Shown: positions 6,256 through 51,546 of the stretch, in pieces
Position numbering within the stretch: the stretch's first letter is position 1
Layout of the letters: the number at the start of each line of letters is the position of its first letter
Source of the DNA: Candidatus Woesearchaeota archaeon
GTDB lineage: Archaea > Nanobdellota > Nanobdellia > SCGC-AAA011-G17 > JACPNG01
Length of the DNA stretch: 60,432 nt
NCBI GenBank assembly: GCA_018303485.1
Contig: JAGVYC010000015.1
Coordinates: 1 to 60,432 of the forward strand
Reading direction: 5' to 3'
Position numbers and translations under genes: made by a program
The notes under the pieces: generated by a model
The model's input: only the letters and a program-made list of their open reading frames with translations
What the model was told of the DNA's origin: nothing
The model's database searches: none

Positions 6256-6256
6256 T

Positions 6257-6768: not shown

Positions 6769-6889
6769 AACCATTTCAGTTTATACTTTTTGTGATTTTA
6801 GCACCCTCTTACTTTGCAATTTAAAAAAAGAAAACACTTTTATACTATCTCTACTTTAAATTTTAGTGTAAATTTAAGGAGCAATTAAA

Positions 6890-7933: not shown

Positions 7934-8569
7934 ATGCAAATGAACAGAATAAAAACAATCGCTCTCTTGCTTGTATTTATCATGTCTCTGGCAATGCCTG
8001 TTTATGCATTAACAGCCTCTATAGGCAATGCAAGGATGATTCTAAATTACACATTGGAAAAGAACAAGGAAAATATTCTAGAAAAATCAATACTAGTAAA
8101 AAACGTAAATGACATGCCTGTTTTGATACAGTTAAAATCAGAAGGGGATATAAAAGACATAACTACTATATCAGAAAACAATTTTACACTGGCAGCCAAG
8201 CAAGATAAGGATGTTAAGTTCTCAATTAAGCTGACACAGCCAGGAGAGATAACAGGCAAGATTAATGTTTTCTTTAGCGATACAGAAGGCACACAAGCTG
8301 GTGCTGTATTGTCATCTAGCATTATTATATTTGTTCTTGGAGAAGGCTCAGTTACGCCAAGCCCAAATCAGACAATAAATCCAATAATAAAAAATAACAC
8401 AATAGACAATCCAGAGAATAAAACCCCTGTTACAGTTTCTGTTGGCGGAACAGGCAATGTAATTATAGAAAAACCAGAATCAGAGGTTAATACATTGTTC
8501 ATAGCATTCATTGTTTTAATGGCAATAATACTTTTTGCAATCATTATTATTATAATAAAAAGGAGTTAA
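7934..8569 (+). CDS. Secreted Ig-like protein with C-terminal TM anchor
   Basis: Signal peptide (MPVYA), beta-rich core, C-terminal hydrophobic helix followed by KRS; AAGGAG SD. Confidence 0.75.
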   Translation: MQMNRIKTIALLLVFIMSLAMPVYALTASIGNARMILNYTLEKNKENILEKSILVKNVNDMPVLIQLKSEGDIKDITTISENNFTLAAKQDKDVKFSIKLTQPGEITGKINVFFSDTEGTQAGAVLSSSIIIFVLGEGSVTPSPNQTINPIIKNNTIDNPENKTPVTVSVGGTGNVIIEKPESEVNTLFIAFIVLMAIILFAIIIIIIKRS

Positions 8570-8575
8570 ATTATC

Positions 8576-12591: not shown

Positions 12592-12620
12592 GCAAAAAAA
12601 GAGGATTTTTAATATATATT

Positions 12621-12730
12621 TTGCCACAGGCTTTGCATATTTAAGCCTCTATTTATGTGCAAAATGGCTTAATTTGTGTGCAAAACGCATTTTATGTGCA
12701 AAGCCTTTGCCACAGAAACCTTTAAATATA
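12621..12730 (+). promoter_or_regulatory. Repeat-rich operator-like region with BRE/TATA upstream of the putative S-layer gene
   Basis: 3x TTT(A/G)TGTGCAAA, 2x TTGCCACAG and nested inverted repeats, followed by GAAACC-TTTAAATA at 12715-12728. Confidence 0.55.
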
Positions 12731-12804
12731 CGTTATAACTCAAAAATGGCAACAGAATAAGAAAAAGGGGCTAATTACTAATAATCTAGGGGGTTAAGTA
12801 CAAA

Positions 12805-17346: not shown

Positions 17347-17442
17347 TGGACTTGGTGGGATTTGAACCCACGACCCTCTGCTTGCTTCTTGCTTCTTTTG
17401 CAATAGAAGGCAGGCGCGCTATCCAGTCTGCGCTACAAGTCC
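17347..17442 (-). tRNA. tRNA-Arg(TCT) with a 21-nt intron (17383-17403)
   Basis: GGACTTG acceptor stem, anticodon loop CT-TCT-A, intron at position 37/38 forming a bulge-helix-bulge (CTTC/GAAG), GTGGGTTCAAATCCCAC T-arm. Confidence 0.93.
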
Positions 17443-17575: not shown

Positions 17576-19780
17576 ATGATTAAAAAATATTTTGCAATAG
17601 TAATCTTAGCAATTGTATTGTTTTCAACAGTTGCATGCACAAAAACAGGTCAATATAAAACACCATTATCAACAAACCAGGAGCTTAAAAAATTCAGCTC
17701 AAGGCAGGAAATAATAAATTACCTTGAACAGGCTTCAAAATACAGCTCTTCTTATTATGGTGGAATTCGAAGCTTTGGAATGATGGCAGAAAAAGCAACG
17801 GCTCTGGAGTCAGCAGCGGCTCCTTTATCAGCAAGCGCAGGCATGGCTAAAGATTATTCAACAACAAACATCCAAGTAGCAGGTGTTGATGAGGCAGATT
17901 TCATAAAAAATGACGGCAAGTACATCTATACAATAGTGCAAAACAAGCTTGTTATTCTAGATGCGTATCCAGCTGAAAATGCAAAGATATTATCTGAAAC
18001 TAAAATTGATGGAACGCCTCAGCAACTATTCCTTAACAAAGACCGCTTGGCAGTATTTACCCAAGAAGATGCCCAGGTTCCAGTATTCGGGGAATTTGAT
18101 TACATGCCAAGACCTATTTACAAGCAGAAAACGCATGCTTTAGTTTATGATGTTTTAGACAAAGAAAATCCTAAGTTAGTCAATGATTATGATCTTACTG
18201 GTAATTATTTTGCAGCAAGAATGATTGATGACTATGTTTATTTGATAGTTCAGGACAATGTATATTATTATGGAGGGGTTCTTGAAATGCCTATGATAAA
18301 GGAATCATCAAAAGTATTGTTAAGGCCGAATGTATATTACTTTGACAATCCAGAAATAAATTATAACTTCAACACTATAATGTCATTCAACATGTTTGAA
18401 GAGGATTCTGTAAAGGCAGAGACATTCATGATGGGGTATACAAACAACCTTTATGTCTCAAAAAACAACATTTACATAACCTACCAGAAAAATGTGCCTT
18501 ATGTATATTACCAGCAGCAAAATGAAGAAAAGTTTTACAATGTAGTTGTTCCATCGCTGCCATCTGACATAAGAAGAGAAATAGAATCTATAAGAAAGGA
18601 TAACAGCCTAAACTCCTATGAGAAATGGGAAAAGGTATCTGATGAACTTGAGAAATTCTACAACAGGCTGGATGAGAATGAAAAAACAGAATTCATAAAG
18701 GATGTTGAAAATGACATGCAGGAATACGAGGCAAAAATGGCAGAAGAAAGAGCAAAGACAGTTGTGCATAAAATAAGCATTGATAATGGTGATATAAAAT
18801 ATGAAGCAAATGGAGAAGTAAAGGGAAATCTGCTAAACCAGTTCTCAATGGACGAGCAGGATGGCAATCTAAGGCTGGCAACAACATTTGAAGCATGGAC
18901 ATTCAACAAGAATATACAACATAACAATGTATATGTGCTGGATTCTGATTTAAAACAAATTGGCTCTCTGGAAAAAATAGCAGAAGATGAAAGGATTTAC
19001 TCAACAAGATTCATTGGAGACAGGCTTTACATGGTTACATTCAAGAGAATGGATCCTTTCTTTGTAATAGACTTGTCTAACCCAAAAAATCCAGAGGTAC
19101 TTGGAGAGCTAAAGATACCTGGCTTCTCAGATTACCTGCACCCTTATGATGAAAACCATATAATTGGAATAGGCAAGGAAACTGACGAGAACGAGTGGGG
19201 AGGCATATCAACAAAAGGAGTCAAGCTTGCCTTGTTTGACGTAAGCAATGTCAATAATCCAGTTCAGATTGACAAGTATGAAATTGGCGGGCAAGGAACA
19301 GATTCAGAAGCATTGCAAGATCATAAGGCCTTCTTGTTTGACAAAAAGAAGAATCTTCTTGTTATACCTATTAGAGAGGTTAAGGGCAACAAAGAATATG
19401 ATCCAAGACTAGGATATTACAGGCAAAACCTATGGCAGGGAGCTTATGTATTTTTATTGACTGAAAAGGGATTTGAACTTAAGGGAAAAATATCACATAT
19501 GGAAGGTCAAGAAACAGACTACTATTATTATGGCTCTCCAAATGCTGTAAGAAGATCCTTGTACATGGATGATGTGCTGTATACAGTTTCAATGAAAAAG
19601 ATAAAGATGAATGATTTGAACAATATAGACAATGAAATTAATTCAGTAAAGCTTCCTTATGAAGATTATTTTGACAGGCCATATCCTTTACCTATGATGA
19701 AAGGCATGTCTGGCGGTGTTGGGGTCATAGAAGTAGTACCTTCATCAACTTCAACAGCAGAAGCAATTGCTGAAAGGTAA
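17576..19780 (+). CDS. Secreted or lipid-anchored beta-propeller domain protein (Beta_propel family)
   Basis: YSTTNIQVAGVDEADFIKNDG, LNQFSMDE, ERIYSTRF, LGELKIPGFSDYLHP; TVAC lipobox-like motif. Confidence 0.88.
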   Translation: MIKKYFAIVILAIVLFSTVACTKTGQYKTPLSTNQELKKFSSRQEIINYLEQASKYSSSYYGGIRSFGMMAEKATALESAAAPLSASAGMAKDYSTTNIQVAGVDEADFIKNDGKYIYTIVQNKLVILDAYPAENAKILSETKIDGTPQQLFLNKDRLAVFTQEDAQVPVFGEFDYMPRPIYKQKTHALVYDVLDKENPKLVNDYDLTGNYFAARMIDDYVYLIVQDNVYYYGGVLEMPMIKESSKVLLRPNVYYFDNPEINYNFNTIMSFNMFEEDSVKAETFMMGYTNNLYVSKNNIYITYQKNVPYVYYQQQNEEKFYNVVVPSLPSDIRREIESIRKDNSLNSYEKWEKVSDELEKFYNRLDENEKTEFIKDVENDMQEYEAKMAEERAKTVVHKISIDNGDIKYEANGEVKGNLLNQFSMDEQDGNLRLATTFEAWTFNKNIQHNNVYVLDSDLKQIGSLEKIAEDERIYSTRFIGDRLYMVTFKRMDPFFVIDLSNPKNPEVLGELKIPGFSDYLHPYDENHIIGIGKETDENEWGGISTKGVKLALFDVSNVNNPVQIDKYEIGGQGTDSEALQDHKAFLFDKKKNLLVIPIREVKGNKEYDPRLGYYRQNLWQGAYVFLLTEKGFELKGKISHMEGQETDYYYYGSPNAVRRSLYMDDVLYTVSMKKIKMNDLNNIDNEINSVKLPYEDYFDRPYPLPMMKGMSGGVGVIEVVPSSTSTAEAIAER

Positions 19781-19970
19781 TTTCTTTTTCTTTTTATTAT
19801 TATTTCTTTTATGCCTTTCGATAAAGCTAAAAATTTTGCAGGAAAACAAGACAAGACACAAATGATTTTCAAAAAAACTGATTATATTTCAAATTTTAAA
19901 AAATTAATCCGCTTTTTTCTCCGCAATCTTCTTTAAAACATCCAACATTAAAACAAAAAAAATTGGAGGT

Positions 19971-21218
19971 GTGAAAATGAAACTGATTCAAATTATTTTT
20001 GCAGTCTTGGTTTCTATTTATGCAGCTAGTGCAAATGTGGTAATAACAGAGATAATGTACAATCCAACACAAGGATCAGATACAGATTTGGAATGGGTTG
20101 AGATATACAATAATGGGAATGCGCCCGTTGACTTGGCTTCCTGGACATTTGACGGAAGCAATTTTGATGACATAACAATAAATCCAAAAGAGTATATAGT
20201 AATAGCAAGAGAGCTTATAGATGGAACTGATGAAGATATTGAGAGCTTTGCAGCATTCTATGGTAATAATGATGGCATTTGGGAGTCTAATGATGGCTTC
20301 AGGGCTGTTGATGGTTCAATGTCCTTGACAAATGATAATTTTCTTGTATTGTCTTCTGGGTCTTATACTGATTCTGTTAATTACTCCAACTCTTGGGGTG
20401 GGAATGGAAATGGAAAGTCAATATATAAGATAGATTACAGCCTGCCAAATACAAAAGAAAACTGGGCAGAAAGCATTTTTGATTTTGGAACTCCTGGAAA
20501 GAACAAGAATAATAATGGAATCTTGGTTACATTACAGGTAATCGGCTCTTCAACAGAGATAACTTCTATTGATTTGCCAGATGATTCTTCAAATAACGGA
20601 TACCAAATATTGCCCATTGCAAATGAGATCAAGGTTATACCTATAACTGTTGATGTTTCAACACAATCAACTGTAACTGCGTATGCAGAGCTTAACAACA
20701 ACAAAATAACTTTAACCCAAACATCTAGCAACTCAACTTCAAAAAGCTTTTCTGGAAACTTGCAGATGCCTTTTTATAACCAGCAAGGAAACTATGTGGT
20801 AAATGTATCTGTAACAGACCAAAGCCAAAAAACAACTTCACAGCTTGTTAATTTTGAATACTTACCTTTAATATCTTCGACATTTGACATAGAAGAGATT
20901 AACTTTGGATCTTTGCCATCAGGCTCTTCATCAAGTGAAAAGACAGTTACTGTAAAAAATACAGGCAATGTATTGATTGACTTGACAGCTTCTGCCACTG
21001 ACTTAAAAAATGGCTTTGATTTAATTCCTGCATCTAGCTTACAAGTAAAGCATTCTAGCATCTATCTGCCTTTGTCAACTACACCAACAAATCTTGACAT
21101 AAATCTGTTGCCTGGACAAAGCAGCAACAAGCAAATCTATTTCAAGGCTGATGTGCCACAGGATGTAAATCCAAACATTTATTCTGGAGTAATAAGCCTG
21201 AATGCAGTGGAAGGTTGA
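19971..21218 (+). CDS. Secreted lamin-tail domain protein
   Basis: Signal peptide, VVITEIMYNP...EWVEIYN...GTPG lamin-tail motif, C-terminal Ig-like domains; GGAGG SD. Confidence 0.85.
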   Translation: MKMKLIQIIFAVLVSIYAASANVVITEIMYNPTQGSDTDLEWVEIYNNGNAPVDLASWTFDGSNFDDITINPKEYIVIARELIDGTDEDIESFAAFYGNNDGIWESNDGFRAVDGSMSLTNDNFLVLSSGSYTDSVNYSNSWGGNGNGKSIYKIDYSLPNTKENWAESIFDFGTPGKNKNNNGILVTLQVIGSSTEITSIDLPDDSSNNGYQILPIANEIKVIPITVDVSTQSTVTAYAELNNNKITLTQTSSNSTSKSFSGNLQMPFYNQQGNYVVNVSVTDQSQKTTSQLVNFEYLPLISSTFDIEEINFGSLPSGSSSSEKTVTVKNTGNVLIDLTASATDLKNGFDLIPASSLQVKHSSIYLPLSTTPTNLDINLLPGQSSNKQIYFKADVPQDVNPNIYSGVISLNAVEG

Positions 21219-22403: not shown

Positions 22404-23231
22404 TCACCTGAAACTTTTGCTTATCTTATCATTCCAGAAGCTTGGCAGCTCGTTTGAAACAAAACCAAGATAGGAATCAGAGTAAATGTATGACATTCCC
22501 CTAACATGCTTGTGCTTCTTGAATTTTTCAGCCTTTTCCCTATATATTTCCGATATCTTCTTTCTTTCAAAGTCCTTCTGCAGCAATGAAGATGGCTTTA
22601 AGATTAGGTAATCAATTTGGCGGATTATGTTTACATCGATATTAGCAGAATTCTGGGTTAAAAAGAGAACGCTCAAATCCTTATGCCTAGCTATCAACAG
22701 TAAATCTGAAAGAAACTTGTTTAATTCCTTCATGAAATTTCTTGAGCTGAATGTTATTCCTGACTCATCTATCAACAGAAATGAATCAACTTGAACTTCC
22801 TCAAGATTTGAAGCAAGCCTTATCCATCTTGGCAAATCCTTGAAGCCCATTGCATAAACCTTCTTTCTTGTCCTGCTGGCAATATTTTCCAATACTCTTA
22901 ATCCTAATGCTGATTTTCCAGTGCCTCTTGCACCAAGAATCAAGCCTATTGTGCTTTGCTTTTCATACAATATGTGCTTAAAATCCTCAAAATTACCTTG
23001 CTCATTTTCAATTTCAACTAGTTCCTTTAACATTGAATTCTTCCTTTCTTTTTCTGCAGTTTTATCTTCGATATTCTTATTTCTTTTTTCACTGGCTTTC
23101 CTGAAGATACTGAAAATACCTGCAAGAATGAATTTAACAGCAACATAGATGCCCTTCAATATATACCATACCAACCTGAATATACCTATGAAAGTAAATG
23201 CTATTAAATTCTGCTTTTTCTTTCCTGCCAT
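22404..23231 (-). CDS. Membrane-anchored Zot-like P-loop ATPase
   Basis: N-terminal hydrophobic segment, Walker A GARGTGKS, Walker B LLIDESG, ARHKDLSVLFLTQ and IDVNIIRQ motifs. Confidence 0.75.
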   Translation of the reverse strand: MAGKKKQNLIAFTFIGIFRLVWYILKGIYVAVKFILAGIFSIFRKASEKRNKNIEDKTAEKERKNSMLKELVEIENEQGNFEDFKHILYEKQSTIGLILGARGTGKSALGLRVLENIASRTRKKVYAMGFKDLPRWIRLASNLEEVQVDSFLLIDESGITFSSRNFMKELNKFLSDLLLIARHKDLSVLFLTQNSANIDVNIIRQIDYLILKPSSLLQKDFERKKISEIYREKAEKFKKHKHVRGMSYIYSDSYLGFVSNELPSFWNDKISKSFR

Positions 23232-25973: not shown

Positions 25974-26018
25974 ACTGTATAGAAATATTAATAAAGTGTT
26001 TGCTTGATTAATTTATGT

Positions 26019-28406
26019 ATGGCAAGATCTATAATTTTATTGCTCTTAGTTGCATTGGTTTTATTGATATTAATCTATGTACCTTATATTGCTGCAGCAG
26101 ATAATGATAATACTGTAATTGTTGCAGCAGATGGTACAGGTAATTTTAAAGATATACAATCAGCCGTTGATGCCCTGCCAAACGGTGGAAAAGTCTTGAT
26201 AAAGGAAGGCATTTACACCATCGATAAGTCAATTAATCTGGCCAAAAATATGGCTGTTATCGGTTCAGGCGACAATACAGTTGTCAAGTTAGGCAATAAT
26301 GTTGACCCTGTACCATTAAGAGGCATATTCAGCATTAAAAACAAAGAGAATATTCTAATTTCTGATCTAAAAATTGACGGAAATATGGCCAATAATCCCA
26401 CATTCGAACAATGGGGCAGGCAAGTTGGCATTAGTATGTGGGATTCAAGAAACATAACAATCAGGCGAATTAATATCATTGACATACCTCATACAGGAGT
26501 TTTCTCAATCAGGTTAGATGGTTGTTTGATTGATGATGTTACTGTTAGAAGAGCAGGATATGGAGGCAGGGGAATTCATATTTATTTCTCAAATAATTGC
26601 ATGATAACTAATTGCTATACTGAGATTCCAGCCCCTGGTTTTGATGGAGTTTATCTTGATAATACAAATAACAGCAAAATTATAAATTGCATAGCTATAA
26701 ATTCCCAATGGGATGGTCTTGGTATTTTCGGGCCACATGCATATAATAATGAAATTAGAGACAGCACATCATTGCATAGTGGCGGTGGTAATATATTCGT
26801 TAGCGCTTCAGGAAACAGAATTATTAACAATGTCTGTAATTATGGTCAGACAGGTATTTGGTTAGGTGGCGAGCCTTTTGGATGGGCAAGAAATAATTTA
26901 TTTCAGGACAACAAATGCAACTATAATGCAAGATATGGATTAATACTATCTCCTAATTTTAATACGTTTTCGAATAATAATTTTATTTATAATCAGGAGT
27001 GTATGTACAATCCAGGAACAAATAGCACATTCAACAATAATTTATGTGAGCCTACTTTAAGTACAAGGCAAAATGATGCCCATTTTATTTACCAGAATGT
27101 TCCAACCAATATGGCTGCTGGTGAAAGATATAAAGTTGAAATCATTATGCAGAATAATGGCACATCTATGTGGACTAGAGCAGACAATTATAGACTAGGG
27201 TCACAAAATTCACCTGATAATGCAATCTGGGGCATTGGAAGAATCTTATTTGACCAGCAGGATACCATAAATATGGGGGCCCATAAATTATTTACATTTA
27301 ATGTAATAGCGCCATCTACGCCTGGAATTTATAACTTTCAATGGCAAATGTTAAGGGAAGGTGTGCAATGGTTTGGGGCCAGAACACCCAATATTGCTAT
27401 AACAGTAGAATCACCAGTTATTTGCGGCAACAATATCTGTGATCCAGGCGAAACAACTCAAAGCTGCCCTCAAGATTGCCAAGTAACTTGCTCAAATGAA
27501 TGCTCTCCTTCTGGAACGAAGCAATGCTTCGGTAATGGTTACCAGACTTGCGGAAATTCTGATGCAGATTCATGCTTAGAATGGAGTTCAATTACAACAT
27601 GCCTAACAGGCCAGACATGCAGCAATGGGCAATGCGTAATAACAACATTATGTGGAAACTCAATATGTGATGCAAATGAAAATGAAATTTCATGCCCTGA
27701 AGATTGTGTATCTCAAACAGGATCTTGCAATCCAGATGGCACTGATGAATTAGGATTGTGCATTATGGCATGCGGTGCCGATATAGCATGCAATGGAAAG
27801 CAGCCAAGAATAACATTGCCATATTGCAGCAAGGTAGGAATTACAGCTGTTTTAGACAAATGCTCATCAAGCTGTAAAGTAGAAGACAAGCCAGACAAGA
27901 TATGCAGGAGAACAGGCATAGAAGATTGCACTGGTGACTGGGAATGTCATGGAAAACAAGCAGGAACTTACAATTGTGATGATAACTGCAATTATATCCC
28001 TCCAGCATGCGGCAATGGCATCTGTGAGTTTGGCGAGACCCTTGATACTTGTTATGTTGATTGTGTAGATATTAAAATAGAATCATGCGGCAACAACAAA
28101 TGCGATTCTCCAGAATCATGCTCTGACTGCCCAGAGGATTGTGGTGTTTGTCCCCCATCTATAGTTGAGGAATCAGTTTGTGGAAATGCAATATGCGAAG
28201 CAGGAGAAACAGCTGAGAGTTGCCAAGCTGATTGCAATGAAATATTAATAAATCTAACAGAAAAACAATTAGAGCAAGAAAAACAAAAAGAAGAAGAGCA
28301 AAATGTTGTGTCAATATACATCTCTAATTTTTTTAGCAAGGTAAAGTGCCTTTTCCGCTCAATTTTCTTGTTTGAAAACTATGGTATTTGCTTAGCTTCA
28401 ATCTAA
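26019..28406 (+). CDS. Secreted parallel beta-helix protein with an NBR1-like Ig domain and Cys-rich repeats
   Basis: VAADGTGNFKDIQSAVDAL pectin-lyase-like start, beta-helix repeats, NNGTSMW...APSTPGIYNFQWQM, 5 CGN..C..GE...SC..DC repeats. Confidence 0.85.
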   Translation: MARSIILLLLVALVLLILIYVPYIAAADNDNTVIVAADGTGNFKDIQSAVDALPNGGKVLIKEGIYTIDKSINLAKNMAVIGSGDNTVVKLGNNVDPVPLRGIFSIKNKENILISDLKIDGNMANNPTFEQWGRQVGISMWDSRNITIRRINIIDIPHTGVFSIRLDGCLIDDVTVRRAGYGGRGIHIYFSNNCMITNCYTEIPAPGFDGVYLDNTNNSKIINCIAINSQWDGLGIFGPHAYNNEIRDSTSLHSGGGNIFVSASGNRIINNVCNYGQTGIWLGGEPFGWARNNLFQDNKCNYNARYGLILSPNFNTFSNNNFIYNQECMYNPGTNSTFNNNLCEPTLSTRQNDAHFIYQNVPTNMAAGERYKVEIIMQNNGTSMWTRADNYRLGSQNSPDNAIWGIGRILFDQQDTINMGAHKLFTFNVIAPSTPGIYNFQWQMLREGVQWFGARTPNIAITVESPVICGNNICDPGETTQSCPQDCQVTCSNECSPSGTKQCFGNGYQTCGNSDADSCLEWSSITTCLTGQTCSNGQCVITTLCGNSICDANENEISCPEDCVSQTGSCNPDGTDELGLCIMACGADIACNGKQPRITLPYCSKVGITAVLDKCSSSCKVEDKPDKICRRTGIEDCTGDWECHGKQAGTYNCDDNCNYIPPACGNGICEFGETLDTCYVDCVDIKIESCGNNKCDSPESCSDCPEDCGVCPPSIVEESVCGNAICEAGETAESCQADCNEILINLTEKQLEQEKQKEEEQNVVSIYISNFFSKVKCLFRSIFLFENYGICLASI

Positions 28407-30729: not shown

Positions 30730-32502
30730 CTATTCAACAATCGCCTTTATTCTTCTAATGCCTGCTGCAACAGCCTCCTCTTTTAATATCTTGAATTTTC
30801 CAATCTCTATTGTATTATTGACATGGGGTCCAGCACATACCTCTTTTGAGTAATCTCCAACAATATAAACAGAAACTTTCTTAGCATATTTATCAACAAA
30901 TAGGGCCTGTGCTCCAAGCCTTTTTGCTTCATCCAAATTGATTTCTTTTCTTTCAATATTCAATCCAAGATTTATTACCTTATTGACCTCATCTTCAACA
31001 TCTTTAAGCTGCTTGTCAGTTAATTTTTTATCATAATTGAAATCAAACCTTAACCTCTCAGGAGTTATGTTGCTGCCCTTTTGTTTTATGCTTGGATCAA
31101 TAACATTTCTCAATGCCTGGTTTAGCAAATGAGTTGCTGTATGTAGCCTTGTTGTGACATAAGATATCTCTCCCAAGCCGCCTTTGAACTTCTTTTCAGA
31201 GCCAATCCTTGAAACATCCTGGTGCAGTTCATATTCCTTGTTAAAACCTTGAGCATCAACTTCAAGGCCTTTCTCTTTTGCAAGTTCTATTGTCATTTCT
31301 AATGGGAATCCAAAACTCTGGTATAATATGAAAGCATCCTTTGCATTTATTATTTTTTCATCAGCCTTTGCTATTTTATCAAATTCTTTTAATCCTCGCT
31401 CTAGGGTCTCCCTGAACCTCTCCTCTTCCTTTTGCATTTCATCAAGAATGAATTTTTTGTTATTCTCTAATTCATCATAATCTTCTTTGTAAAGTTCAAT
31501 TACAACATTGGCTATTTTAGCAGTAAAATCATTTTCAATGCCAATTAATTTCCCATGCCTTATGGCTTTTCTTATTAATCTTCTAATAACATAACCCTGG
31601 TCTATGTTTGATGGAGGAATCTGCTTTTCATCACCCAATATGAATGTTGCAGACCTTATATGATCTGCTATTATTCTTATAGATCTTTTTGTTTTTTCAT
31701 CATTGTAATTCTTTTTTGAAATTTCTTCTATCTTTTTTATTACAGGATTGAATATTGTTGTTTCATAATTGTCCTTTAACCCATTTATAACAGCCAATGT
31801 TCTTTCAACACCCATTCCAGTGTCAACATTCTTGTTTTTTAGCTCTTTATATTTGCCTTCTTTTGTTTTGTTGTACTGCATAAAAACATCATTCCAGATT
31901 TCGCACCAGTTTTCTTCATCATTTCCAGGGTTGCTTTCCTTAGATGGTCTATCATTTCCAATATAGTAAAACATCTCTGTATCTGGCCCGCAAGGCCCTG
32001 TTTCTCCAGCTGGCCCCCACCAGTTGTTTTTCTTAGGCAGATAAGTAATTCGTTCTTTTTTTATTCCAAGCTTTTTCCAGATTTCTGCTGATTCCTCGTC
32101 TTTAGGAGCATCTTTATCACCAGCAAAAACAGATATTCCTAATTTTTCAACTGGTATTCCTAAATCCCTTGTTAGGAATTCAAAGCTCCATTCAATTGCA
32201 TCTTTCTTGAAATAGTCTCCAAATGACCAGTTTCCAAGCATCTCAAAAAAAGTATGGTGAAAAGCATCTCCAACCTCATCTATATCAGAAGTCCTTATGC
32301 ATTTTTGTACACTAACCACTCTTTTTCCAAGAGGATGTTTCTGGCCAATTAAATAAGGCACTAAAGGATGCATCCCGGCTGTTGTAAATAATATAGAAGG
32401 ATCATTTTCAGGGATTAAAGACGCAGATCCAAGTACTTCGTGATTTTTGCTTTTAAAAAAATCCAGGTACTTTTTTATCAATTCCTGCCTAGTTTTTGTC
32501 AT
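30730..32502 (-). CDS. alaS: Alanine--tRNA ligase, short form lacking the C-Ala domain
   Basis: LFTTAGM, QKCIRT, HHTFFEMLGNWSFGDYFK, VDTGMGVER; editing motifs HTATH and CAGPH; the protein ends at GIRRIKA. Confidence 0.97.
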   Translation of the reverse strand: MTKTRQELIKKYLDFFKSKNHEVLGSASLIPENDPSILFTTAGMHPLVPYLIGQKHPLGKRVVSVQKCIRTSDIDEVGDAFHHTFFEMLGNWSFGDYFKKDAIEWSFEFLTRDLGIPVEKLGISVFAGDKDAPKDEESAEIWKKLGIKKERITYLPKKNNWWGPAGETGPCGPDTEMFYYIGNDRPSKESNPGNDEENWCEIWNDVFMQYNKTKEGKYKELKNKNVDTGMGVERTLAVINGLKDNYETTIFNPVIKKIEEISKKNYNDEKTKRSIRIIADHIRSATFILGDEKQIPPSNIDQGYVIRRLIRKAIRHGKLIGIENDFTAKIANVVIELYKEDYDELENNKKFILDEMQKEEERFRETLERGLKEFDKIAKADEKIINAKDAFILYQSFGFPLEMTIELAKEKGLEVDAQGFNKEYELHQDVSRIGSEKKFKGGLGEISYVTTRLHTATHLLNQALRNVIDPSIKQKGSNITPERLRFDFNYDKKLTDKQLKDVEDEVNKVINLGLNIERKEINLDEAKRLGAQALFVDKYAKKVSVYIVGDYSKEVCAGPHVNNTIEIGKFKILKEEAVAAGIRRIKAIVE

Positions 32503-33499: not shown

Positions 33500-33632
33500 A
33501 TGTATAAACATCGATGGCGTCTTATTAAATATTTTGTATCATTACTCAATAGTTAAAATTTAAAGATATAAAAAACTATTTAAACCAGTTTCGGCTGTTC
33601 AATTTTCTACAAAAATTTATGGCATATATAAA

Positions 33633-34235
33633 ATGAAAATAACACCAAAGGATATAGAAGACCTTGTTGCAGACGTAGTGGGCAAAGACACATTGCAGGT
33701 TCTAAAACTTATTAAAAATAGAAAAAATGTTTCTGAATTCAAGATAGCAGAAAAAATGAAGATTAATGTCAACCAGGTAAGAAACATGCTTTACAGGATG
33801 AATGAATACGGCCTTGTTGGCTTTACCAGGAAAAAAGACAAGAAAAAGGGCTGGTACATTTATTATTGGACATTTAATGACAAGCAAGCAAAAAATCTCT
33901 ATACACATTTAAAAAGAAAAAAACTAGAGGCATTAAAATCAAGGCTTAACGACCCAAAAGAAGAAACATTTTATGTGTGCAAAATAGATTTTGTAAAATT
34001 TGATATTAATGGGTCATTAGATGTTGATTTCAAATGCCCTGAATGTGGCAAACTTCTAAAGGAAGAAAAAATAGTTCATGATTTTGACAGAATTAAAAAA
34101 GAAATTGAGATCCTAGAGCAGGAGTTAATTCAAAAGCCAAAAGTAATTCCTATAATAAAGCCCCCTAAAAAAAAGCAAAAGCAAAAACCAGTTTCAAAAT
34201 TCTCAAAATCCAAAAGAGCCAAAAAGTCCAGATAA
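33633..34235 (+). CDS. tfe: Transcription factor E (TFIIE alpha homolog)
   Basis: Winged helix EFKIAE...NQVRNMLY...GLV, GWYIYYW, and Zn ribbon FKCPECG. Confidence 0.92.
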   Translation: MKITPKDIEDLVADVVGKDTLQVLKLIKNRKNVSEFKIAEKMKINVNQVRNMLYRMNEYGLVGFTRKKDKKKGWYIYYWTFNDKQAKNLYTHLKRKKLEALKSRLNDPKEETFYVCKIDFVKFDINGSLDVDFKCPECGKLLKEEKIVHDFDRIKKEIEILEQELIQKPKVIPIIKPPKKKQKQKPVSKFSKSKRAKKSR

Positions 34236-34757
34236 AACCTTAAATCCATCAAATGGAGGTATTGGCAGCATATTGAAAATAAACAATATCATGTTAATTC
34301 TTTTTGTTGCATACAAAATTATTGATGCCTTTGCGTTATAATGCCTGTATTTTAGCAATAAAAAGGCGCCTATCCACAGCAGAAGGTTCATGAAAGGCCC
34401 CATAAAAGCTATTATCATTGATTGAACTGAAGTTGCATTTGCTATATTTACATATCCTGGCACGAACAGCAATAAAGGCGAGTTAATCAGCCTTAGCAAT
34501 ACACCTATGCCTAATCCAAGATAACTTGCAAAAAACTCCGCATTAATCCCAAAAGCTAGTGCAGTAAACTTATGCCCTAATTCATGCAGCAATACAGCAG
34601 GCGCAGCTATAGCTACAGCTATCTTAATATTGCCCCAGTCAAATCCTTTGTAAAAATCTTCTATGTCTTTCGGCAGTTTAATGCTGCTTGAAAATATATA
34701 GCCTAATGCAAATGTAACAACAACCAGCCTAAAAAATTCAATTAAAGAAATAATCAT
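34203..34757 (-). CDS. M50 family site-2 intramembrane metalloprotease
   Basis: HELGH, AFMGP..N and NMLPIPPFDG motifs. Confidence 0.92.
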   Translation of the reverse strand: MIISLIEFFRLVVVTFALGYIFSSSIKLPKDIEDFYKGFDWGNIKIAVAIAAPAVLLHELGHKFTALAFGINAEFFASYLGLGIGVLLRLINSPLLLFVPGYVNIANATSVQSMIIAFMGPFMNLLLWIGAFLLLKYRHYNAKASIILYATKRINMILFIFNMLPIPPFDGFKVLSGLFGSFGF

Positions 34758-34758
34758 C

Positions 34759-34890
34759 TTAAGAAGCTATATATGGTCCTTTCTTCTTCCCTTCGTACTC
34801 TTTAGGGTATTCATCCTCACCATAATCAATTTCGAATAGAAAGTCATTTAATTCCTCTTTCCAGCTGTCATCAAACTTTTTCATTTTCAT
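34759..34890 (-). CDS. Small acidic protein (43 aa, missed by the ORF track)
   Basis: MKMKKFDDSWKEELNDFLFEIDYGEDEYPKEYEGKKKGPYIAS*; its stop lies 1 nt before the M50 ATG; TATA-like TATTTAAA upstream. Confidence 0.55.
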   Translation of the reverse strand: MKMKKFDDSWKEELNDFLFEIDYGEDEYPKEYEGKKKGPYIAS

Positions 34891-34928
34891 AGGATTTGAT
34901 ATGGCACAAACATTTAAATAGCTTTCTT

Positions 34929-36095
34929 TTAAAAATTGCTTAATGTTTTTTGCTCTCTGATTTCTTTCAATAAAATGCTTTTATCAAAAAACATATTTGC
35001 TGGTATTTTCAGCCTGCTTTTAATGTTTTCAGCAGCTGATTTGAAGTCATTGAATTTCAATGGCTGTTTTCTCATTGCATTTCTTGTTACTTCTCTTAAA
35101 ATGCCGACTCCGCATGGTATTTCATAATCTTTTACTTCTCTTAAGACTAAGATAGAAGCCTGCCTTTTTATTTTGTCTAGATGCTCGCAGATGCCAAGAC
35201 GGTTCGAATAATACGCTCCAGTAACAGATGCAGCATAGGTTTTTCTTTTGTTATGGCTTTCATAATCCTGCCAGAATTGTATCATGTTGGAGTTGCTGTT
35301 GTATTTTGCTTCTATAACCTCGAAGCTAAAATGCCTCGGCATCAACAAAATTTCATAATGATTTCCAAGGTATTCATCATAAAAAACAAGGTATTCATTT
35401 ATTGCATTGTAATGCTTTATTTTTTCTATTAAGCTCTTCGATATCAGGTCATCAACAGCAGTTATGGACCATTTTGTCGGAACTAGCTTTCTCTGTATGT
35501 TTATACCTAGTAAGCCAGCAGAAAGTAGCTTGTTGATGTTTGATGCAGTAAAATTATGCTGGTAAAGGTCTAGTATTGCATCATTTGCTTTCATGTCGTT
35601 GTCGCCAACAATATATTCTACTCTTTTTTCAACTTTTGGATTTTCTTCCAAAACAGCCTTTTTTAATGGCGCAGGATTGAATATGGGCTTGTGAAAATTA
35701 TCCAGCTTGAAAGATAGGCCTGGCTTTTTCTTAAGCTCAAAATTAACATCAACAGGTTTCTTGGCCATGCTTACTTCCTGCATGACATTAGTAAGCTTAT
35801 TTCCATATTTTATATTGCTTACAAATCTTGAGTACACCATAGAAGCCCTATTCAGCAATATATCTCTTTCATTAAGCCTTGCTTTAAACCATTCTTCTGG
35901 ATCGCTTAATCTGTAGGAATATTCATCATGCTTTGCAGGAGATAAAATGCCAGTAAAAACATTGGGATAATTAAACTCCCCGACAAATATTTCAGGAGGG
36001 CTAGAGCCTGTAAAATTCAAGCTTATGTTCTTTAGCAAATCCCCCCTTATTTTATTAAGTGCTTCATAGTACTTGCTGTCTTTTTCTATTTTCAT
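34929..36095 (-). CDS. nreA: Nre-family DNA repair protein
   Basis: GSSPPEIFVG..NYPNV, LLSAGLLG....RKLVPTKWSITAVD, C-terminal PIP box QKTLSNF. Confidence 0.88.
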   Translation of the reverse strand: MKIEKDSKYYEALNKIRGDLLKNISLNFTGSSPPEIFVGEFNYPNVFTGILSPAKHDEYSYRLSDPEEWFKARLNERDILLNRASMVYSRFVSNIKYGNKLTNVMQEVSMAKKPVDVNFELKKKPGLSFKLDNFHKPIFNPAPLKKAVLEENPKVEKRVEYIVGDNDMKANDAILDLYQHNFTASNINKLLSAGLLGINIQRKLVPTKWSITAVDDLISKSLIEKIKHYNAINEYLVFYDEYLGNHYEILLMPRHFSFEVIEAKYNSNSNMIQFWQDYESHNKRKTYAASVTGAYYSNRLGICEHLDKIKRQASILVLREVKDYEIPCGVGILREVTRNAMRKQPLKFNDFKSAAENIKSRLKIPANMFFDKSILLKEIREQKTLSNF

Positions 36096-36126
36096 GATAT
36101 TAATAAGATATTAAGAAATAAAAAGC

Positions 36127-36951
36127 TTATCCTTTTCTTGGTATTCTCAGAACCATGCCTGTTTTAATTTTATCTATGTTTATATTTGGATTAAGTTTTG
36201 CGAATTTATCATAATTTTGCTCATTCCAAACACCATGTTTTAGAAGTATTCTGAATCCATTTTCACCTTTCTTTACCTTATACGATACATATTCTTTACC
36301 CACACTGTTTCTTTTTTCAGCATAATTGTTTGCAGCCATTGCCACACCCTCTTCCATTGTCTCTGGTTTTGTTTCAACAATTTTTCCATCATTGCTGCCA
36401 ACTCCAGCCATTCTCCAAGGGCTGCTGCCAAGAATTTTTTTAACATAATCTTTTGTTTCTGGTATGTTTGGAACTTTATTATCAGCTTCAAGAACCCTTT
36501 CTGGCCCTGCATTGTAAGCCGCCAATGCAAGCTCAAGATTGCCATTGAATCTTTTAAGTTGCTTTCCAAGGTATTGTATTCCACCTTTTATGTTTTCTCT
36601 AGGATCATATATGTCTTTAACACCAAGTTCTTCTGATGTTCCAGGCATTAATTGCATTAATCCTTTAGCGCCTTTTGGTGAGGTTGCACAAACTTCGTAA
36701 TTAGATTCTGCTCTTATTACATCTTTTATCAGTTTTTTAGAAACAGGATAAGCACCATATTGTCTGTTATGCCTTCTAACCTCTTCAGATATTATGTCGT
36801 CTATAGAAGGCTCTTTGTGTTTAATGTGCTTAATTATTATTTGAGCTGCATTTTCAGGTATTTTAGCCATATTCTTGTATTCAAGGTCCTTTATGTATTG
36901 GCCAAATAAAAAACTGCCTAAAACAGCTGCAGATATAATGCCCTTTTTCAT
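36127..36951 (-). CDS. Exported lytic transglycosylase (SLT/GH23) with a C-terminal LysM domain
   Basis: Catalytic AES, GAKGLMQLMP, DPRENIKGG..YL, ALAAYNAG and PETKDYVKKI motifs; LysM YKVKKGE...LNPNINIDKIKTGMVLRIP; hydrophobic N-terminus. Confidence 0.93.
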   Translation of the reverse strand: MKKGIISAAVLGSFLFGQYIKDLEYKNMAKIPENAAQIIIKHIKHKEPSIDDIISEEVRRHNRQYGAYPVSKKLIKDVIRAESNYEVCATSPKGAKGLMQLMPGTSEELGVKDIYDPRENIKGGIQYLGKQLKRFNGNLELALAAYNAGPERVLEADNKVPNIPETKDYVKKILGSSPWRMAGVGSNDGKIVETKPETMEEGVAMAANNYAEKRNSVGKEYVSYKVKKGENGFRILLKHGVWNEQNYDKFAKLNPNINIDKIKTGMVLRIPRKG

Positions 36952-37017
36952 AGAGAACTATATGAAAGTAATACTATATAAATCTTTCGCTTTGTTATTA
37001 TCTATAAGTGGTTACAA

Positions 37018-37203
37018 TTAATCTCTCAGATCTGAAAAGCTAAGCATAACTAACAATAAGCCAATTAAGCCAACAATTATGCCTACAGACCCTTTAATAA
37101 TATCCAACAGTTGCGGCCACCATTTCAATATGCCTAGCAATCCTAAAATGATAAACACCGCTCCAAGTATAATTTTAAATAAACCTACTGCTGCATTTGC
37201 CAT
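37018..37203 (-). CDS. Small 2-TM membrane protein
   Basis: Two hydrophobic helices; GGAGGT SD before ATG 37203. Confidence 0.7.
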   Translation of the reverse strand: MANAAVGLFKIILGAVFIILGLLGILKWWPQLLDIIKGSVGIIVGLIGLLLVMLSFSDLRD

Positions 37204-37289
37204 TTTTACCTCCATTAATGCCTTTTTATTGATATTATTTCTTTATAAAAATTTAGTTTTAAATTTATGCATATTTAAAGTATAGACTT

Positions 37290-37422
37290 TGTCCGAATAG
37301 TGCCCGAAAAGTCTTAATTATCTGACACCTTGATTGCTTTTCGGACAGAATCATGACTTTTCGGTCAAGAGCTACTTTATTAGACAAATCCTCTGACCAC
37401 ATGACCACAAAACCTTTTTAAA
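37290..37422. promoter_or_regulatory. Inverted-repeat operator-like array plus TATA between divergent genes
   Basis: TGTCCGAA/TTCGGACA (37290-37297/37340-37347), CCGAAAAGTC/GACTTTTCGG (37304-37313/37355-37364), 2x TGACCACA, then AAAACCTTTTTAAA. Confidence 0.5.
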
Positions 37423-37445
37423 CCATACCTATTATATATTAAATC

Positions 37446-38006
37446 ATGTTAAACAAGCAAGAATTTAAGAAAATAAAGAAAGAACTTGCAAAATTTGAAA
37501 CAGAGAGAGAAGCAGAAATTCAAAAATCAAGGGAGATAATAAGGTTTTCAAAATTAATTATATACGCCTTGCACAGAAATAGCATAAAAGAAGCAGCAGA
37601 CTATGTTAAAAAAATAAAAAACAAGGTAAAAGCACTTTCAAAAAATAATTATGACATGTCTCTTTCTAGTGTTGCCAAGCAGGAATATGTTGAAGCATTG
37701 TGCTATTATCATTTCATAAAAGATAGGAAAATACCAACAAAAAAAGAGCTAAATATTGATACAGAAACATATCTTCTTGGCATTTGCGATTTAACCGGCG
37801 AACTTGTAAGAAAAGCAGTTGATGATGCAATAAAAAGAAACTTTGGAAATACAATAGCCATTAAAGAGCTAGTCTCAGAAATCTACAGGGCTTTCTTGGA
37901 TTTCGACTTGAGAAACGGCGATTTAAGAAAAAAAGCAGATTCTATAAAATATAATCTCAAGAAACTTGAAGACCTTGTTTATGAGATCAAGACAAAGAGA
38001 CACTAG
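37446..38006 (+). CDS. Translin/TRAX (C3PO) family RNase
   Basis: QEYVEA, YLLGICDLTGELVR and LRKKAD motifs. Confidence 0.9.
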   Translation: MLNKQEFKKIKKELAKFETEREAEIQKSREIIRFSKLIIYALHRNSIKEAADYVKKIKNKVKALSKNNYDMSLSSVAKQEYVEALCYYHFIKDRKIPTKKELNIDTETYLLGICDLTGELVRKAVDDAIKRNFGNTIAIKELVSEIYRAFLDFDLRNGDLRKKADSIKYNLKKLEDLVYEIKTKRH

Positions 38007-39080
38007 TTATTTATACTCTTTCTTAACATCATCAAAATAATTCTTCTTTATTGATTTTCTTATTTCTTTCATCATCTCTTGTATGAAATGAACATTATGT
38101 ATTGAAACATACCTGAAAGCAAGAGGAACTTCTGATTTCAATAAATGCCTTAAGTATGCCTTGCTAAAGTTTTTGCAGAAATAGCAGGTGCAATCTTTTT
38201 CAATTGGACTCTTATCCTTTGCATAAATTCCTCTTAATATGTCTATTCTTCCATTTTTTGTAAATAAGCCGCCGTGCCTTGCTGTTCTTGTAGGAAAGCA
38301 GCTGTCAAATATGTCAATGCCATGGTCTACTGCATTTATGATTTCTTTTGGAGAGCCAATTCCCATCAAATACCTTGGCTTTTCTTTATTCAAATAAGGC
38401 AATGAGAAATCTATCATATTATACATTGCTTTTTTTTCTTCTCTAATTCCTAGGCCACCTAAAGCAATGCCATCAAAGTCCAGGCTATTGATGAATTTTG
38501 CACTTTTAACCCTTAATTTTTTGTCAATAGAGCCTTGTGTTATTCCGAACAATAATTGATTCTCGTTTTTATGAGCTTCTTTGCATCTTGCTGCCCATTC
38601 ATGAGTTCTTTTTACACAATTTGAAATGCTTCTGGAACTATTATGATGGGGAACATCGTCAAGTGCCATTGCAACATCAGAGCCAAGTGCATTTTGTATT
38701 TCTATTGCTCTTTCTGGCGTTAGCAGATGAACTTTCCCATCATATGGTGATTTGAAATAAAATCCACTTTCAGAAATCTTGTCATAAAAAAACTCGCTCA
38801 ACACCTGAAAACCACCAGAATCTGTAAAAATGACTTTGTCCCAGCTCATGAAGTTATGAAGGCCATTGAAATGACTTATGATTTCTAAACCTGGCTTCAA
38901 TGAAATCAGCAATGTATTTGTTATGATTGCATTTGTATTGTCAAGATCATCCTTGCTTAGATGTTTCATGGCAGCCTTAGTGGCAACAGGCATGAAAAAG
39001 GGCGTTTCTATAATACCATGGGCTGTTTTTAGCTTTCCTAGCCTTGCTTTTCCTTGTTCTGATACAATTTTAAAGACCAT
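38007..39080 (-). CDS. tgt: tRNA-guanine(34) transglycosylase, bacterial/eukaryotic (queuine) type
   Basis: TPFFMPVAT, TDSGGFQV, PRYLMGIG, GIDIFDS..PTR.ARHG and Zn site CTCYFC...HN; 357 aa with no PUA domain. Confidence 0.93.
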   Translation of the reverse strand: MVFKIVSEQGKARLGKLKTAHGIIETPFFMPVATKAAMKHLSKDDLDNTNAIITNTLLISLKPGLEIISHFNGLHNFMSWDKVIFTDSGGFQVLSEFFYDKISESGFYFKSPYDGKVHLLTPERAIEIQNALGSDVAMALDDVPHHNSSRSISNCVKRTHEWAARCKEAHKNENQLLFGITQGSIDKKLRVKSAKFINSLDFDGIALGGLGIREEKKAMYNMIDFSLPYLNKEKPRYLMGIGSPKEIINAVDHGIDIFDSCFPTRTARHGGLFTKNGRIDILRGIYAKDKSPIEKDCTCYFCKNFSKAYLRHLLKSEVPLAFRYVSIHNVHFIQEMMKEIRKSIKKNYFDDVKKEYK

Positions 39081-39098
39081 TATCAAGAAAGGAACAAC

Positions 39099-39114
39099 AA
39101 GGTTTATATACCTT
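39099..39114. promoter_or_regulatory. Near-palindromic bidirectional TATA box shared by tgt and aspS
   Basis: AAGGTTTATATACCTT; the TATA core is about 22 nt from each of the divergent ATGs (39080 and 39132). Confidence 0.6.
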
Positions 39115-39131
39115 TTTTAAACCGCATTATT

Positions 39132-40910
39132 ATGGAAAACAAGCATTTAGCAACGAAATTAAGAACTAACACTTGCGGTGAGCTTACAGCAAAAGATGAA
39201 AACAAAAAAATAAAATTATCTGGTTGGGTTGCTTCAAGAAGGGACCATGGCGGGGTTATTTTCATTGATTTAAGGGACAGGTATGGTTTAACACAGATTG
39301 TTTTTAATCCAGATTTTAAAGATTTCAAGCAAGCAGAGCATTTGGGAAGGGAATTCTGCATCTCAATTTCTGGAATTGTTAAAAAAAGAAAAAAGGGTAT
39401 GGAAAATCCAAAGATAAAAACAGGCGAGATAGAAGTTTTTGCTGACTCGCTGGAAATATTGAATAAATCTGAAATACCTCCTTTTGAAATCGATGACAGG
39501 ACAGTTGCAAATGAAGAATTGAGGATGAAATTCAAATATCTTGATTTAAGAAAGCCTTCAATGCAAAATAATTTGGCTTTTAGGCATAATGTTGCACAGG
39601 CAGCCAGAGCATTTTTAAGCAACAATGGATTTTTGGAAATAGAAACACCAATATTGGTAAAGCCCACTCCAGAAGGGGCTAGAGATTATGTTGTGCCAAG
39701 CAGAACCAATATGGGGAAGTTTTATGCTCTGCCTCAAAGCCCACAATTATACAAGCAGATATTGATGGTATCTGGATTTGACAGGTATTTTCAGCTTGCA
39801 AGGTGTTTAAGAGATGAAGATTTAAGGGCAGACAGGCAGCCAGAGCATACACAGATAGACATAGAAATGAGCTTTGCCACTCAAGAAGATGTATATGCAA
39901 TAGGAGAAGGCATGCTAAAAGAGATATTCAAAAAAGCATTAAACATAGATTTAAAGACGCCTTTTCAAAGATTGCCACATAAAGAAGCCATAGAAAAATA
40001 TGGCTCTGACAAACCAGACTTAAGATTCAACATGGAATTGATTGATGTAAGCGACATAGCAAAGAAATCAGAGTTCTCTGTTTTTAAAGATGCTATTGGC
40101 CAAAAAGGCATTGTAAAGTGTATGATTATACCTTCAAATTTAACAAGAAAAGAGCTTGAAGAGCTTATTGAGTTTTCAAAAATTTATAAGGCAAAAGGCA
40201 TGGCGTGGGCAAAACTGCAAAATGGGAGGCTAGAATCATCCATTATAAAGTATTTTAATGAAGATGTTCAGAAGGGACTAATAAAAAAAACAGATATAAA
40301 GGAAAACCAAACTGTTGTTTTTGTTGCTGACAAGGCAAAGATAGTTCATGATGCGCTTGGAGCCATAAGAAAAGAAATGGGCAAGAGGCTAAAGCTTTAT
40401 AATGAAAAGGAGTTTAAATTCTGCTGGATAGTTGATTTTCCATTGTTTGAATGGAATGAAGACGAGAACAAATGGGATGTAGCACATCATCCTTTTTGCA
40501 TGCCGATAGAAAAAGACATTCCTAAGATTGACAAAGATCCTGGAAGCGTTTATTGCACCCAATATGACCTTGTATTAAATGGTGTTGAGGTGTGCTCAGG
40601 AAGCGTAAGAATACACAAGCCAGAAATACAAAGAACAGTATTTGATGTTATAGGAATAACTGAAAAAGAAGCTGAGGAGAAATTTGGATTCTTGCTGAAT
40701 GCTTACAAGTATGGCGGACCGCCGCACGCAGGCTTTGGAATGGGGCTTGACAGGCTAACTGCAATGATGCTTGGCTTGGAAGACATAAGAGAAGTAATAG
40801 CGTTTCCGAAAAACAAGAATGCAGAATGCCCTATGGATGGTTCGCCTATAGAAATCAACAGCAAACAACTTAAAGAACTGCATATAAAAGTTGATATAGC
40901 CAAGAAGTAA
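39132..40910 (+). CDS. aspS: Aspartate--tRNA(Asp/Asn) ligase, bacterial type, probably non-discriminating
   Basis: 592 aa with the GAD insert, RRDHGG, TPEGARDY, ALPQSPQ, RDEDLRADRQPE and PPHAG..GLDR motifs. Confidence 0.97.
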   Translation: MENKHLATKLRTNTCGELTAKDENKKIKLSGWVASRRDHGGVIFIDLRDRYGLTQIVFNPDFKDFKQAEHLGREFCISISGIVKKRKKGMENPKIKTGEIEVFADSLEILNKSEIPPFEIDDRTVANEELRMKFKYLDLRKPSMQNNLAFRHNVAQAARAFLSNNGFLEIETPILVKPTPEGARDYVVPSRTNMGKFYALPQSPQLYKQILMVSGFDRYFQLARCLRDEDLRADRQPEHTQIDIEMSFATQEDVYAIGEGMLKEIFKKALNIDLKTPFQRLPHKEAIEKYGSDKPDLRFNMELIDVSDIAKKSEFSVFKDAIGQKGIVKCMIIPSNLTRKELEELIEFSKIYKAKGMAWAKLQNGRLESSIIKYFNEDVQKGLIKKTDIKENQTVVFVADKAKIVHDALGAIRKEMGKRLKLYNEKEFKFCWIVDFPLFEWNEDENKWDVAHHPFCMPIEKDIPKIDKDPGSVYCTQYDLVLNGVEVCSGSVRIHKPEIQRTVFDVIGITEKEAEEKFGFLLNAYKYGGPPHAGFGMGLDRLTAMMLGLEDIREVIAFPKNKNAECPMDGSPIEINSKQLKELHIKVDIAKK

Positions 40911-51462: not shown

Positions 51463-51546
51463 GGGCTTATGATGCAATGGATAGCATAAACGGCTTCGGA
51501 GTCATGGAGAAACCGTTATATCTGGGTTCGAATCCCAGTAGGCCCA
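51463..51546 (+). tRNA. tRNA-Arg(TCG) with a 12-nt intron (51500-51511)
   Basis: GGGCTTA/TAGGCCC acceptor stem, ATGC/GCAT D-stem, AACGG/CCGTT anticodon stem, CTGGGTTCGAATCCCAG T-arm. Confidence 0.92.

Follow-up and report, generated by a model that had tools for sequence, protein, structure and literature searches.

Does a gene for a peptidoglycan-cutting enzyme that lies in an archaeal contig belong to the archaeon and, if so, on what would its product act? This question is raised by one gene, termed here the SLT-LysM gene, in a stretch of 60,432 nucleotides (the window) from a Candidatus Woesearchaeota archaeon. A first-pass annotation had claimed complete transglycosylase motifs, a C-terminal LysM and an N-terminal export or anchor segment for its product, and had inferred a bacterial target. 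Our reading, to which we give a probability of roughly 0.65, is that the archaeon, a DPANN member of Woesearchaeota type, makes from this gene a small exported family-1 lytic transglycosylase resembling MltD, which would act on foreign bacterial murein. The features of the locus are as follows.

36127..36951, minus strand: SLT-LysM gene, 274 amino acids, predicted export (open reading frame list, Pfam SLT and LysM; stop codon within the span)
36892..36951, minus strand: codons 1-20, predicted export signal or N-terminal anchor (hydropathy; MKK, then 13-14 hydrophobic residues)
36469..36753, minus strand: SLT/GH23 catalytic domain (Pfam residues 67-161; folded domain about 50-177)
36706..36708, minus strand: codon of E82, predicted catalytic glutamate of the ES motif (invariant in 74/74 aligned sequences)
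36139..36282, minus strand: C-terminal LysM, residues 224-271 (Pfam; genome scan; beta-alpha-alpha-beta fold with pLDDT of about 90)
36975..36982, minus strand: TATA box TTTATATA (exact match, -31..-24 from the ATG)
33633-34235, plus strand: TFE alpha
34929-36095, minus strand: Nre
37018-37215, minus strand: two-helix membrane open reading frame of 65 amino acids, directly upstream of the SLT gene
37446-38006, plus strand: translin

The open reading frame is intact and its boundaries coincide exactly with 36127..36951. Just two codons of open frame are found upstream of M1 (a 276-aa frame), and M1 rather than M28 is taken as the start since residue 28 is a leucine (CTG) in some strains. The SLT domain (PF01464, residues 67-161) was found with an E-value of 2.3e-25 and 88.8 bits against a cut-off of 21.3, and it scored 90.5 bits in the genome scan of the same protein. 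The LysM domain (PF01476, residues 224-271) was found with an E-value of 1.4e-5 and 25.4 bits against a cut-off of 20.9, and with 27.8 bits in a separate six-frame genome scan in which it is the sole LysM of the assembly. Four motifs occur in the translation, namely IRAES (E82, S83), GLMQ (97-100), AYNAG (145-149) and ETKDYV (165-170). The names ES, GLMQ and AYNxG for the motifs of family-1 lytic transglycosylases follow Blackburn and Clarke. In an alignment of 74 sequences, E82, S91, G94, G97, Y146 and G149 are invariant while S83, Q100, N147, E165 and T166 are conserved in at least 90% of them, and the ES motif at E82 aligns with the ES of the LtgA-type transglycosylase 5mpq and with that of a phage SLT domain. 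Both the full motif set and the C-terminal LysM of the first-pass annotation are thus upheld, the latter by a score above the cut-off and by its fold in the structure model.

The N-terminus MKKGIISAAVLGSFLFGQYI contains a single hydrophobic stretch, with a 15-residue Kyte-Doolittle maximum of 1.58 at residues 4-18, which agrees with the export or anchor segment claimed earlier, as far as hydropathy can predict it. In the N-terminal sequence MKKGIISAAVLGSFLFGQY, a few residues of a charged n-region precede 13-14 hydrophobic ones; there is no cysteine, and therefore no lipobox. The predicted export signal is a short one in which no cleavage site stands out. In the FlaFind class III (archaeal type IV pilin) pattern, about 20 hydrophobic residues come after a [KR][GA] cleavage motif. 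MKKG/IISAAV matches this class III motif, but the hydrophobic stretch that follows has only 13-14 residues, and a set of other proteins of the genome encoded on contig C25, described below, matches the pattern much better.

An AlphaFold2 model built on the 74-sequence alignment has a mean pLDDT of 82.7, with values above 95 in the SLT domain (residues 50-177) and about 90 in the LysM (residues 221-271), which adopts a beta-alpha-alpha-beta arrangement; the linker (181-194) and the N-terminus have low pLDDT. The modelled SLT domain has a goose-lysozyme-like alpha-helical fold. The top matches of the model in a Foldseek search of the PDB were LtgA (5o1j), Slt (6fc4) and MltD (8rhf), followed by others including MltC, MltF, MltE and a T7 internal core protein, with a probability of 1.00 to LtgA, Slt, MltC, MltE and MltF. 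The alignments to MltD span 277-313 columns with the LysM included (306 columns for 8rhf). By sequence, NCBIfam gave only sub-threshold, domain-level matches to the lytic transglycosylase equivalogs BB0259, MltF, Slt and MltD. Among solved structures, the SLT domain of a phage tape-measure protein (9b45, E-value 1.6e-16) was the best sequence match, followed by LtgA-type enzymes (5mpq and related entries), Slt, MltD (8rhe) and MltF.

Of the known systems, MltD (family 1D, GH23; 8rhe, 8rhf and 8rhi from P. aeruginosa, PRK10783 in E. coli) has the same domain order, SLT and then a C-terminal LysM. Both proteins share ES, GLMQ and AYNxG, and the sequence match to 8rhe has an E-value of 8.4e-7. 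A lipoprotein signal with a lipobox cysteine is a feature of MltD, whereas the SLT-LysM protein lacks this cysteine (no cysteine in residues 1-87). The title of 8rhf names two LysM whereas the archaeal protein has one, and its score against the MltD equivalog NF008050 is 41.3 bits, below the cut-off of 508.

The nearest sequences to the SLT core, among the matches listed, are small bacterial SLT proteins of Nitrospirota, Desulfobulbia and other phyla, many of which carry an N-terminal DUF4124 (PF13511). Their identity is 45-65% over about 100-170 residues and they end by about residue 195, so that none of those listed covers the linker and the LysM. These are housekeeping enzymes of murein-making bacteria, unlike the archaeal SLT-LysM protein. 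A HMMER scan of the full library listed 150 matches, among which residues 1-274 were matched only by the protein's own cluster. The top matches in two stretches were tandem-SLT proteins and not SLT with LysM (10 of the 150 listed were checked), and P0134 (633 aa) was the only LysM carrier among those checked.

The phage tape-measure match counts in favour of a rival explanation, in which a bacterial or phage gene, such as an endolysin with its holin, was either misplaced into the archaeal contig during assembly or transferred there only lately, and does nothing for the archaeon. In PHROGs, endolysin and lytic tail families also match (E-values of 1e-32 to 1e-33), the 65-aa two-helix open reading frame lies directly upstream, and the identity of the SLT core reaches 60% with bacterial proteins (100-126 bits) but at most 47% with the SLT domains of the sampled relatives from the order (at most 93 bits). 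The bacterial set compared is, however, the best 80 of at least 587 matches from about 185,000 species and is thus biased to high identity.

The evidence from the contigs and the neighbourhood argues against this explanation, which we regard as largely refuted and highly improbable. Four metagenome runs on groundwater and soil, which belong to three studies, yielded contigs that bridge the junctions of the gene. A contig of the first run (X1, record 1) spans 33500-38086 without differences and one of X2 (record 11) spans 33830-39272, the two junctions are bridged by separate contigs in X4 (records 19 and 21), and an X5 contig bridges the junction between nre and the SLT gene; X4 and X5 are runs not flagged as a possible source of the assembly. 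With each side of the gene crossed by independent contigs, the window contig is not chimeric here. A 90%-identity cluster holds five strain variants, all of 274 aa, from several assembling sources with twelve recorded contig placements, the longest contig being 77.6 kb. The five variants differ at six positions (10, 28, 63, 67, 70 and 261) and are identical over residues 71-260. Six of the seven population variants found in the gene are non-synonymous, which counts against our main reading, although none of them touches the catalytic core; the number is too small for a selection test.

The composition of the gene is also native, with a GC content of 34.8% against a genome mean of 34.3 +/- 2.8% (432 genes) and a GC3 of 23.6% against 31.0 +/- 4.9%. 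The TATA-like element placed about 25 nt upstream by the first-pass annotation is an exact TTTATATA at -31..-24, where the motif peaks genome-wide, and it is preceded by a purine-rich GCGAAAGA. Upstream of the 518 longer open reading frames of the genome, the TTTATATA motif with at most one mismatch was found 60 times in the -30..-21 bin against 4-31 times in the other bins. The gene is therefore predicted to have its own promoter in the native position.

The neighbours tfe, nre and translin are of archaeal type as claimed, according to Pfam calls in the window, and an M50 peptidase gene is also located nearby. The window further encodes L15e, aIF5A, TFE, Nre, a wyosine enzyme and GatCA, and the nearest L15e loci in named genomes belong to Candidatus Woesearchaeota in 8 of 10 cases, confirming the archaeal, DPANN-type host. 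The SLT-LysM gene thus belongs to the DPANN genome of Woesearchaeota type in which it lies. Within about 10 kb of it, no genes of phages or mobile elements were seen, and the earlier statement to that effect holds over this distance.

The nearest oddity, 13 kb away at 22404-23231 on the minus strand, is an open reading frame of 275 aa with a membrane segment at its N-terminus and a weak Zot-like P-loop match (PF05707, 25.1 bits, cut-off 20.3); nothing else in the window hints at a mobile or viral gene. The minus-strand gene at 38007-39086 encodes a member of the queuine/archaeosine tRNA-ribosyltransferase family (PF01702, E-value 3.8e-134); a queuosine pathway was noted in some DPANN by Castelle 2021 (PMC8204110). 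Rfam places tRNA genes at 17347-17442 (minus strand, 96 nt) and 51463-51546 (plus strand, 84 nt). ARAGORN missed the first and could not read the anticodon of the second, and hence both probably contain introns. Large secreted proteins occur in a run at 1017-14784, 17576-21218 and 26004-28406, with Ig-like, He_PIG, thrombospondin-3, lamin-tail, beta-helix and beta-propeller domains. One of them (12805-14784) has a sub-threshold match to a WxL-interacting peptidoglycan-binding domain (25.1 bits against 27.3).

A holin-endolysin cassette of a phage was considered for the SLT gene and the 65-aa open reading frame, and was rejected. The latter matches neither Pfam nor PHROGs. Conserved counterparts adjoin nre or translin in the closest relative G005 (64% identity), in G010 (40%) and in G013 (35%), and no SLT gene accompanies them in G010 and G013. 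The assignment of this small protein as a holin was dropped on the same grounds, and the neighbours of the pair are housekeeping genes.

The locus itself belongs to a block conserved in the family, consisting of TFE, M50, Nre, the 65-aa open reading frame (not in all cases), translin and AspRS. Within the family, an SLT gene between the 65-aa open reading frame and nre was found only in the genome studied here (G000) and in G005, where the order is small open reading frame, SLT, nre, M50 and TFE and the Nre is 69% identical. G007 probably has an SLT gene in the same place, as SLT and nre lie on adjoining contig ends. A divergent SLT-LysM gene convergent to nre occurs in G003. The nre loci of G004, G010, G013, G008 and G002 have no SLT gene, which shows it to be dispensable. 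Next to nre, the gene is thus an insertion with a patchy distribution. Both the G005 and the G007 protein retain the motifs and a hydrophobic N-terminus but stop without a LysM, and among syntenic orthologues the LysM is confined to the copy of this species.

SLT domains were found in 117 of 200 other genomes of the order, in frames of about 170 to 3034 aa, in 56 of 102 high-quality genomes of the order (G000 counted) and in 157 of 300 other genomes of the phylum, a count that includes one unpublished genome (G401). Judged from these scans, the domain is a lineage-wide trait. The LysM domain is less common, with 26 of 200 genomes of the order. SLT and LysM share one frame in five further genomes of the order (G183, G170, G003, G108 and G034), and in G072 they do so with the LysM below the cut-off. 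The frame in G170 (L133; G170:C7:67-1353, minus strand) is an open frame of 429 aa consisting of a signal, LysM, SLT and then a sequence like the middle of alanyl-tRNA synthetase, for which the window open reading frame 30730-32502 may be compared; a gene fusion, a frameshift or a false join in the assembly could each account for it.

The phylogenetic check for an archaeal clade gave a partial answer. A quick domain tree of 109 rows and 113 columns is unresolved; the window sequence groups in it with three bacterial rows, without significant support (SH-aLRT 81). A single clade of the window, G005 and G007 sequences is not rejected by an AU test (p 0.306); this clade was named after the tree was seen, on synteny grounds. 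Left out of the tree were ten duplicate loci, three filtered loci (L026, L073 and L048) and two with matches of fewer than 80 residues (L108 and L116); L113 and L118 had no match and are not in the tree. The filter drops matches with fewer than 80 query residues or with a stop, and as L026, L073 and L048 span at least 120 residues they were presumably dropped for a stop. Taken with the orthologue of G005 in the same place, and probably that of G007, we read the SLT-LysM gene as an old resident of a fast-evolving sub-clade and not as a fresh transfer.

If the gene is native, the substrate of its product is the next question. Searches for Mur_ligase_M, PBP transpeptidase and GT51 gave no match in the assembly, which is 73.6% complete, while as positive controls they matched 12, 10 and 10 of 14 control genomes, respectively. 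At this completeness, the murein synthesis genes are to be described as not found rather than absent. The best explanation of this result is that the substrate would be foreign, and the producer differs here from the bacteria that carry MltD in that no murein of its own to remodel was found. For the bacterial target inferred in the first-pass annotation, an action outside the cell on bacterial murein is thus a reasonable part of the claim.

The steps that we propose are as follows. The protein would be exported through its N-terminal hydrophobic signal or anchor, and the LysM would hold the enzyme on bacterial peptidoglycan by its glycan strands, which contain GlcNAc. E82 would next serve as the only acid catalyst while the SLT domain cuts the MurNAc-GlcNAc bond and leaves a 1,6-anhydroMurNAc end. 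The substrate may be the wall of a bacterium that the archaeon attaches to, feeds on or competes with.

The binding domain leaves room for a substrate other than murein, such as chitin, chito-oligosaccharides or an envelope glycan of an archaeal host (e.g., pseudomurein), with the LysM serving as a general binder of GlcNAc glycans. Some GH23 enzymes act on chitin, and the title of 8rhi describes the P. aeruginosa MltD crystallised with chito-tetraose. The lytic transglycosylase reaction needs the C6 hydroxyl of MurNAc, which the talosaminuronic acid of pseudomurein does not have, and this chemistry speaks against pseudomurein. LysM can bind chitin and pseudomurein as well (PMC12352652, citing Visweswaran 2012). 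However, the close relatives in sequence and fold are all murein lytic transglycosylases, and according to PMC12352652 archaeal hydrolases of such kind are rare in the lineages that make pseudomurein. We therefore consider a non-murein substrate decidedly unlikely.

A milder alternative keeps murein as the substrate and takes the protein as a secreted enzyme that solubilises the peptidoglycan debris of dead bacteria, with the stem peptides or amino sugars being taken up as nutrients. In favour of this, the organism is present in metagenomes of groundwater and soil, and the abundance of aminopeptidase genes in the window (M17, M24, M42 and M16) fits a peptide-based diet; peptidoglycan-derived amino acids are discussed for Pacearchaeota in PMC11537232. 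On the other hand, AnmK and Amidase_2 were not found in the 73.6%-complete genome, leaving the sugar products with no visible onward route, and the pilin-like N-termini of a second set of wall-cutting proteins in this genome suggest a contact-dependent use. Scavenging thus appears unlikely, and we prefer the reading in which the enzyme would act on the wall of a bacterial partner, prey or competitor.

This second set is found on contig C25 (5 kb), where seven abutting co-directional genes occupy locus L012:171-5027 on the minus strand. Most of the products open with a basic motif and then about 20 hydrophobic residues, and such N-termini look pilin-like by the class III pattern. They include an SLT protein of 466 aa with its domain split by an insert and an M23 peptidase of 352 aa. 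The C25 SLT protein is matched in 14 of 16 genomes of the family, over its full length by orthologues in G005 (51%) and G007 (49%); it is the conserved copy, and the SLT-LysM gene of the window is the accessory one. A prepilin peptidase (Peptidase_A24, contig C8) and four T2SSE-type ATPases are also encoded in the genome. The SLT-LysM protein would probably complement this family-wide set.

A more specific arrangement can be offered tentatively. The genome may hold a two-tier kit against bacterial walls, in which the C25 SLT and M23 proteins form a family-wide, contact-dependent tier that fibres resembling type IV pili could carry by way of the pilin-like N-termini, and a soluble or anchored lineage-specific SLT is added to them. 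The LysM of the latter, gained in this species alone among syntenic orthologues, would perhaps have retuned the enzyme to the wall of a particular bacterial host. We consider this arrangement possible and rather doubtful as it stands.

The claim that the locus is a candidate novel system did not hold up, as the domain is found throughout the lineage and the inference is already in print (PMC8204110, PMC9723730, PMC10936187, PMC11537232 and PMC12352652). Murein-like lytic transglycosylase proteins were described as typical of the small-genome Woese- and Pacearchaeota in Castelle 2021 (PMC8204110), which proposes attachment to bacterial walls and cites the sightings of Rinke 2013 and Castelle 2015. 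A predatory, ‘vampiristic’ use of GH23 was proposed in Woesearchaeota by Vigneron 2022 (PMC9723730), and the same bacterial-wall point is repeated in PMC10936187 and PMC11537232. The fam00969 proteins of the former study and the GH23 proteins of the latter come from the same lineage and share the SLT domain and the proposed bacterial-wall role. The published Woese- and Pacearchaeota SLT proteins are large, up to 3,000 aa, whereas the SLT-LysM protein has 274 aa; fam00969 is compared here by its description only.

The modular archaeal peptidoglycan hydrolases of PMC12352652 likewise join a wall-binding to a catalytic domain in an archaeon without murein. In the part of that work available to us, the M23 zoocin A homologs are the only family reported as traced in archaea. 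Its domain list (supplement file 6) has SLT as catalytic and LysM as wall-binding, and the GH25 of Aciduliprofundum (Metcalf 2014) is cited there as an earlier report. Such hydrolases are described as prominent in Nanoarchaeota and able to kill bacteria, and no assayed archaeal SLT is reported in the same part. A bacterial-wall role for the SLT-LysM protein is plausible, neither new nor proven, and the gene is a further example of a kind that has been reported. Three local points are modestly new: the gene is inserted next to nre in a patchy manner, its LysM is specific to the species, and a wall-cutting set with pilin-like N-termini exists alongside it.

Murein-cutting enzymes are the main genomic hint that some Woese- and Pacearchaeota depend on bacteria and not on archaea. 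The SLT-LysM protein is compact, intact and conserved among strains, and with 274 aa it could be expressed and assayed far more readily than the published giants, which reach about 3,000 aa. Knowing which substrate it prefers could narrow the search for a host. If the two-tier arrangement is true, this easily expressed enzyme would serve as a probe for the bacteria on which these uncultured archaea live. The local history, with a patchy insertion, a LysM in one species and a family-wide SLT and M23 set, points to a toolkit that is actively reshuffled within one family.
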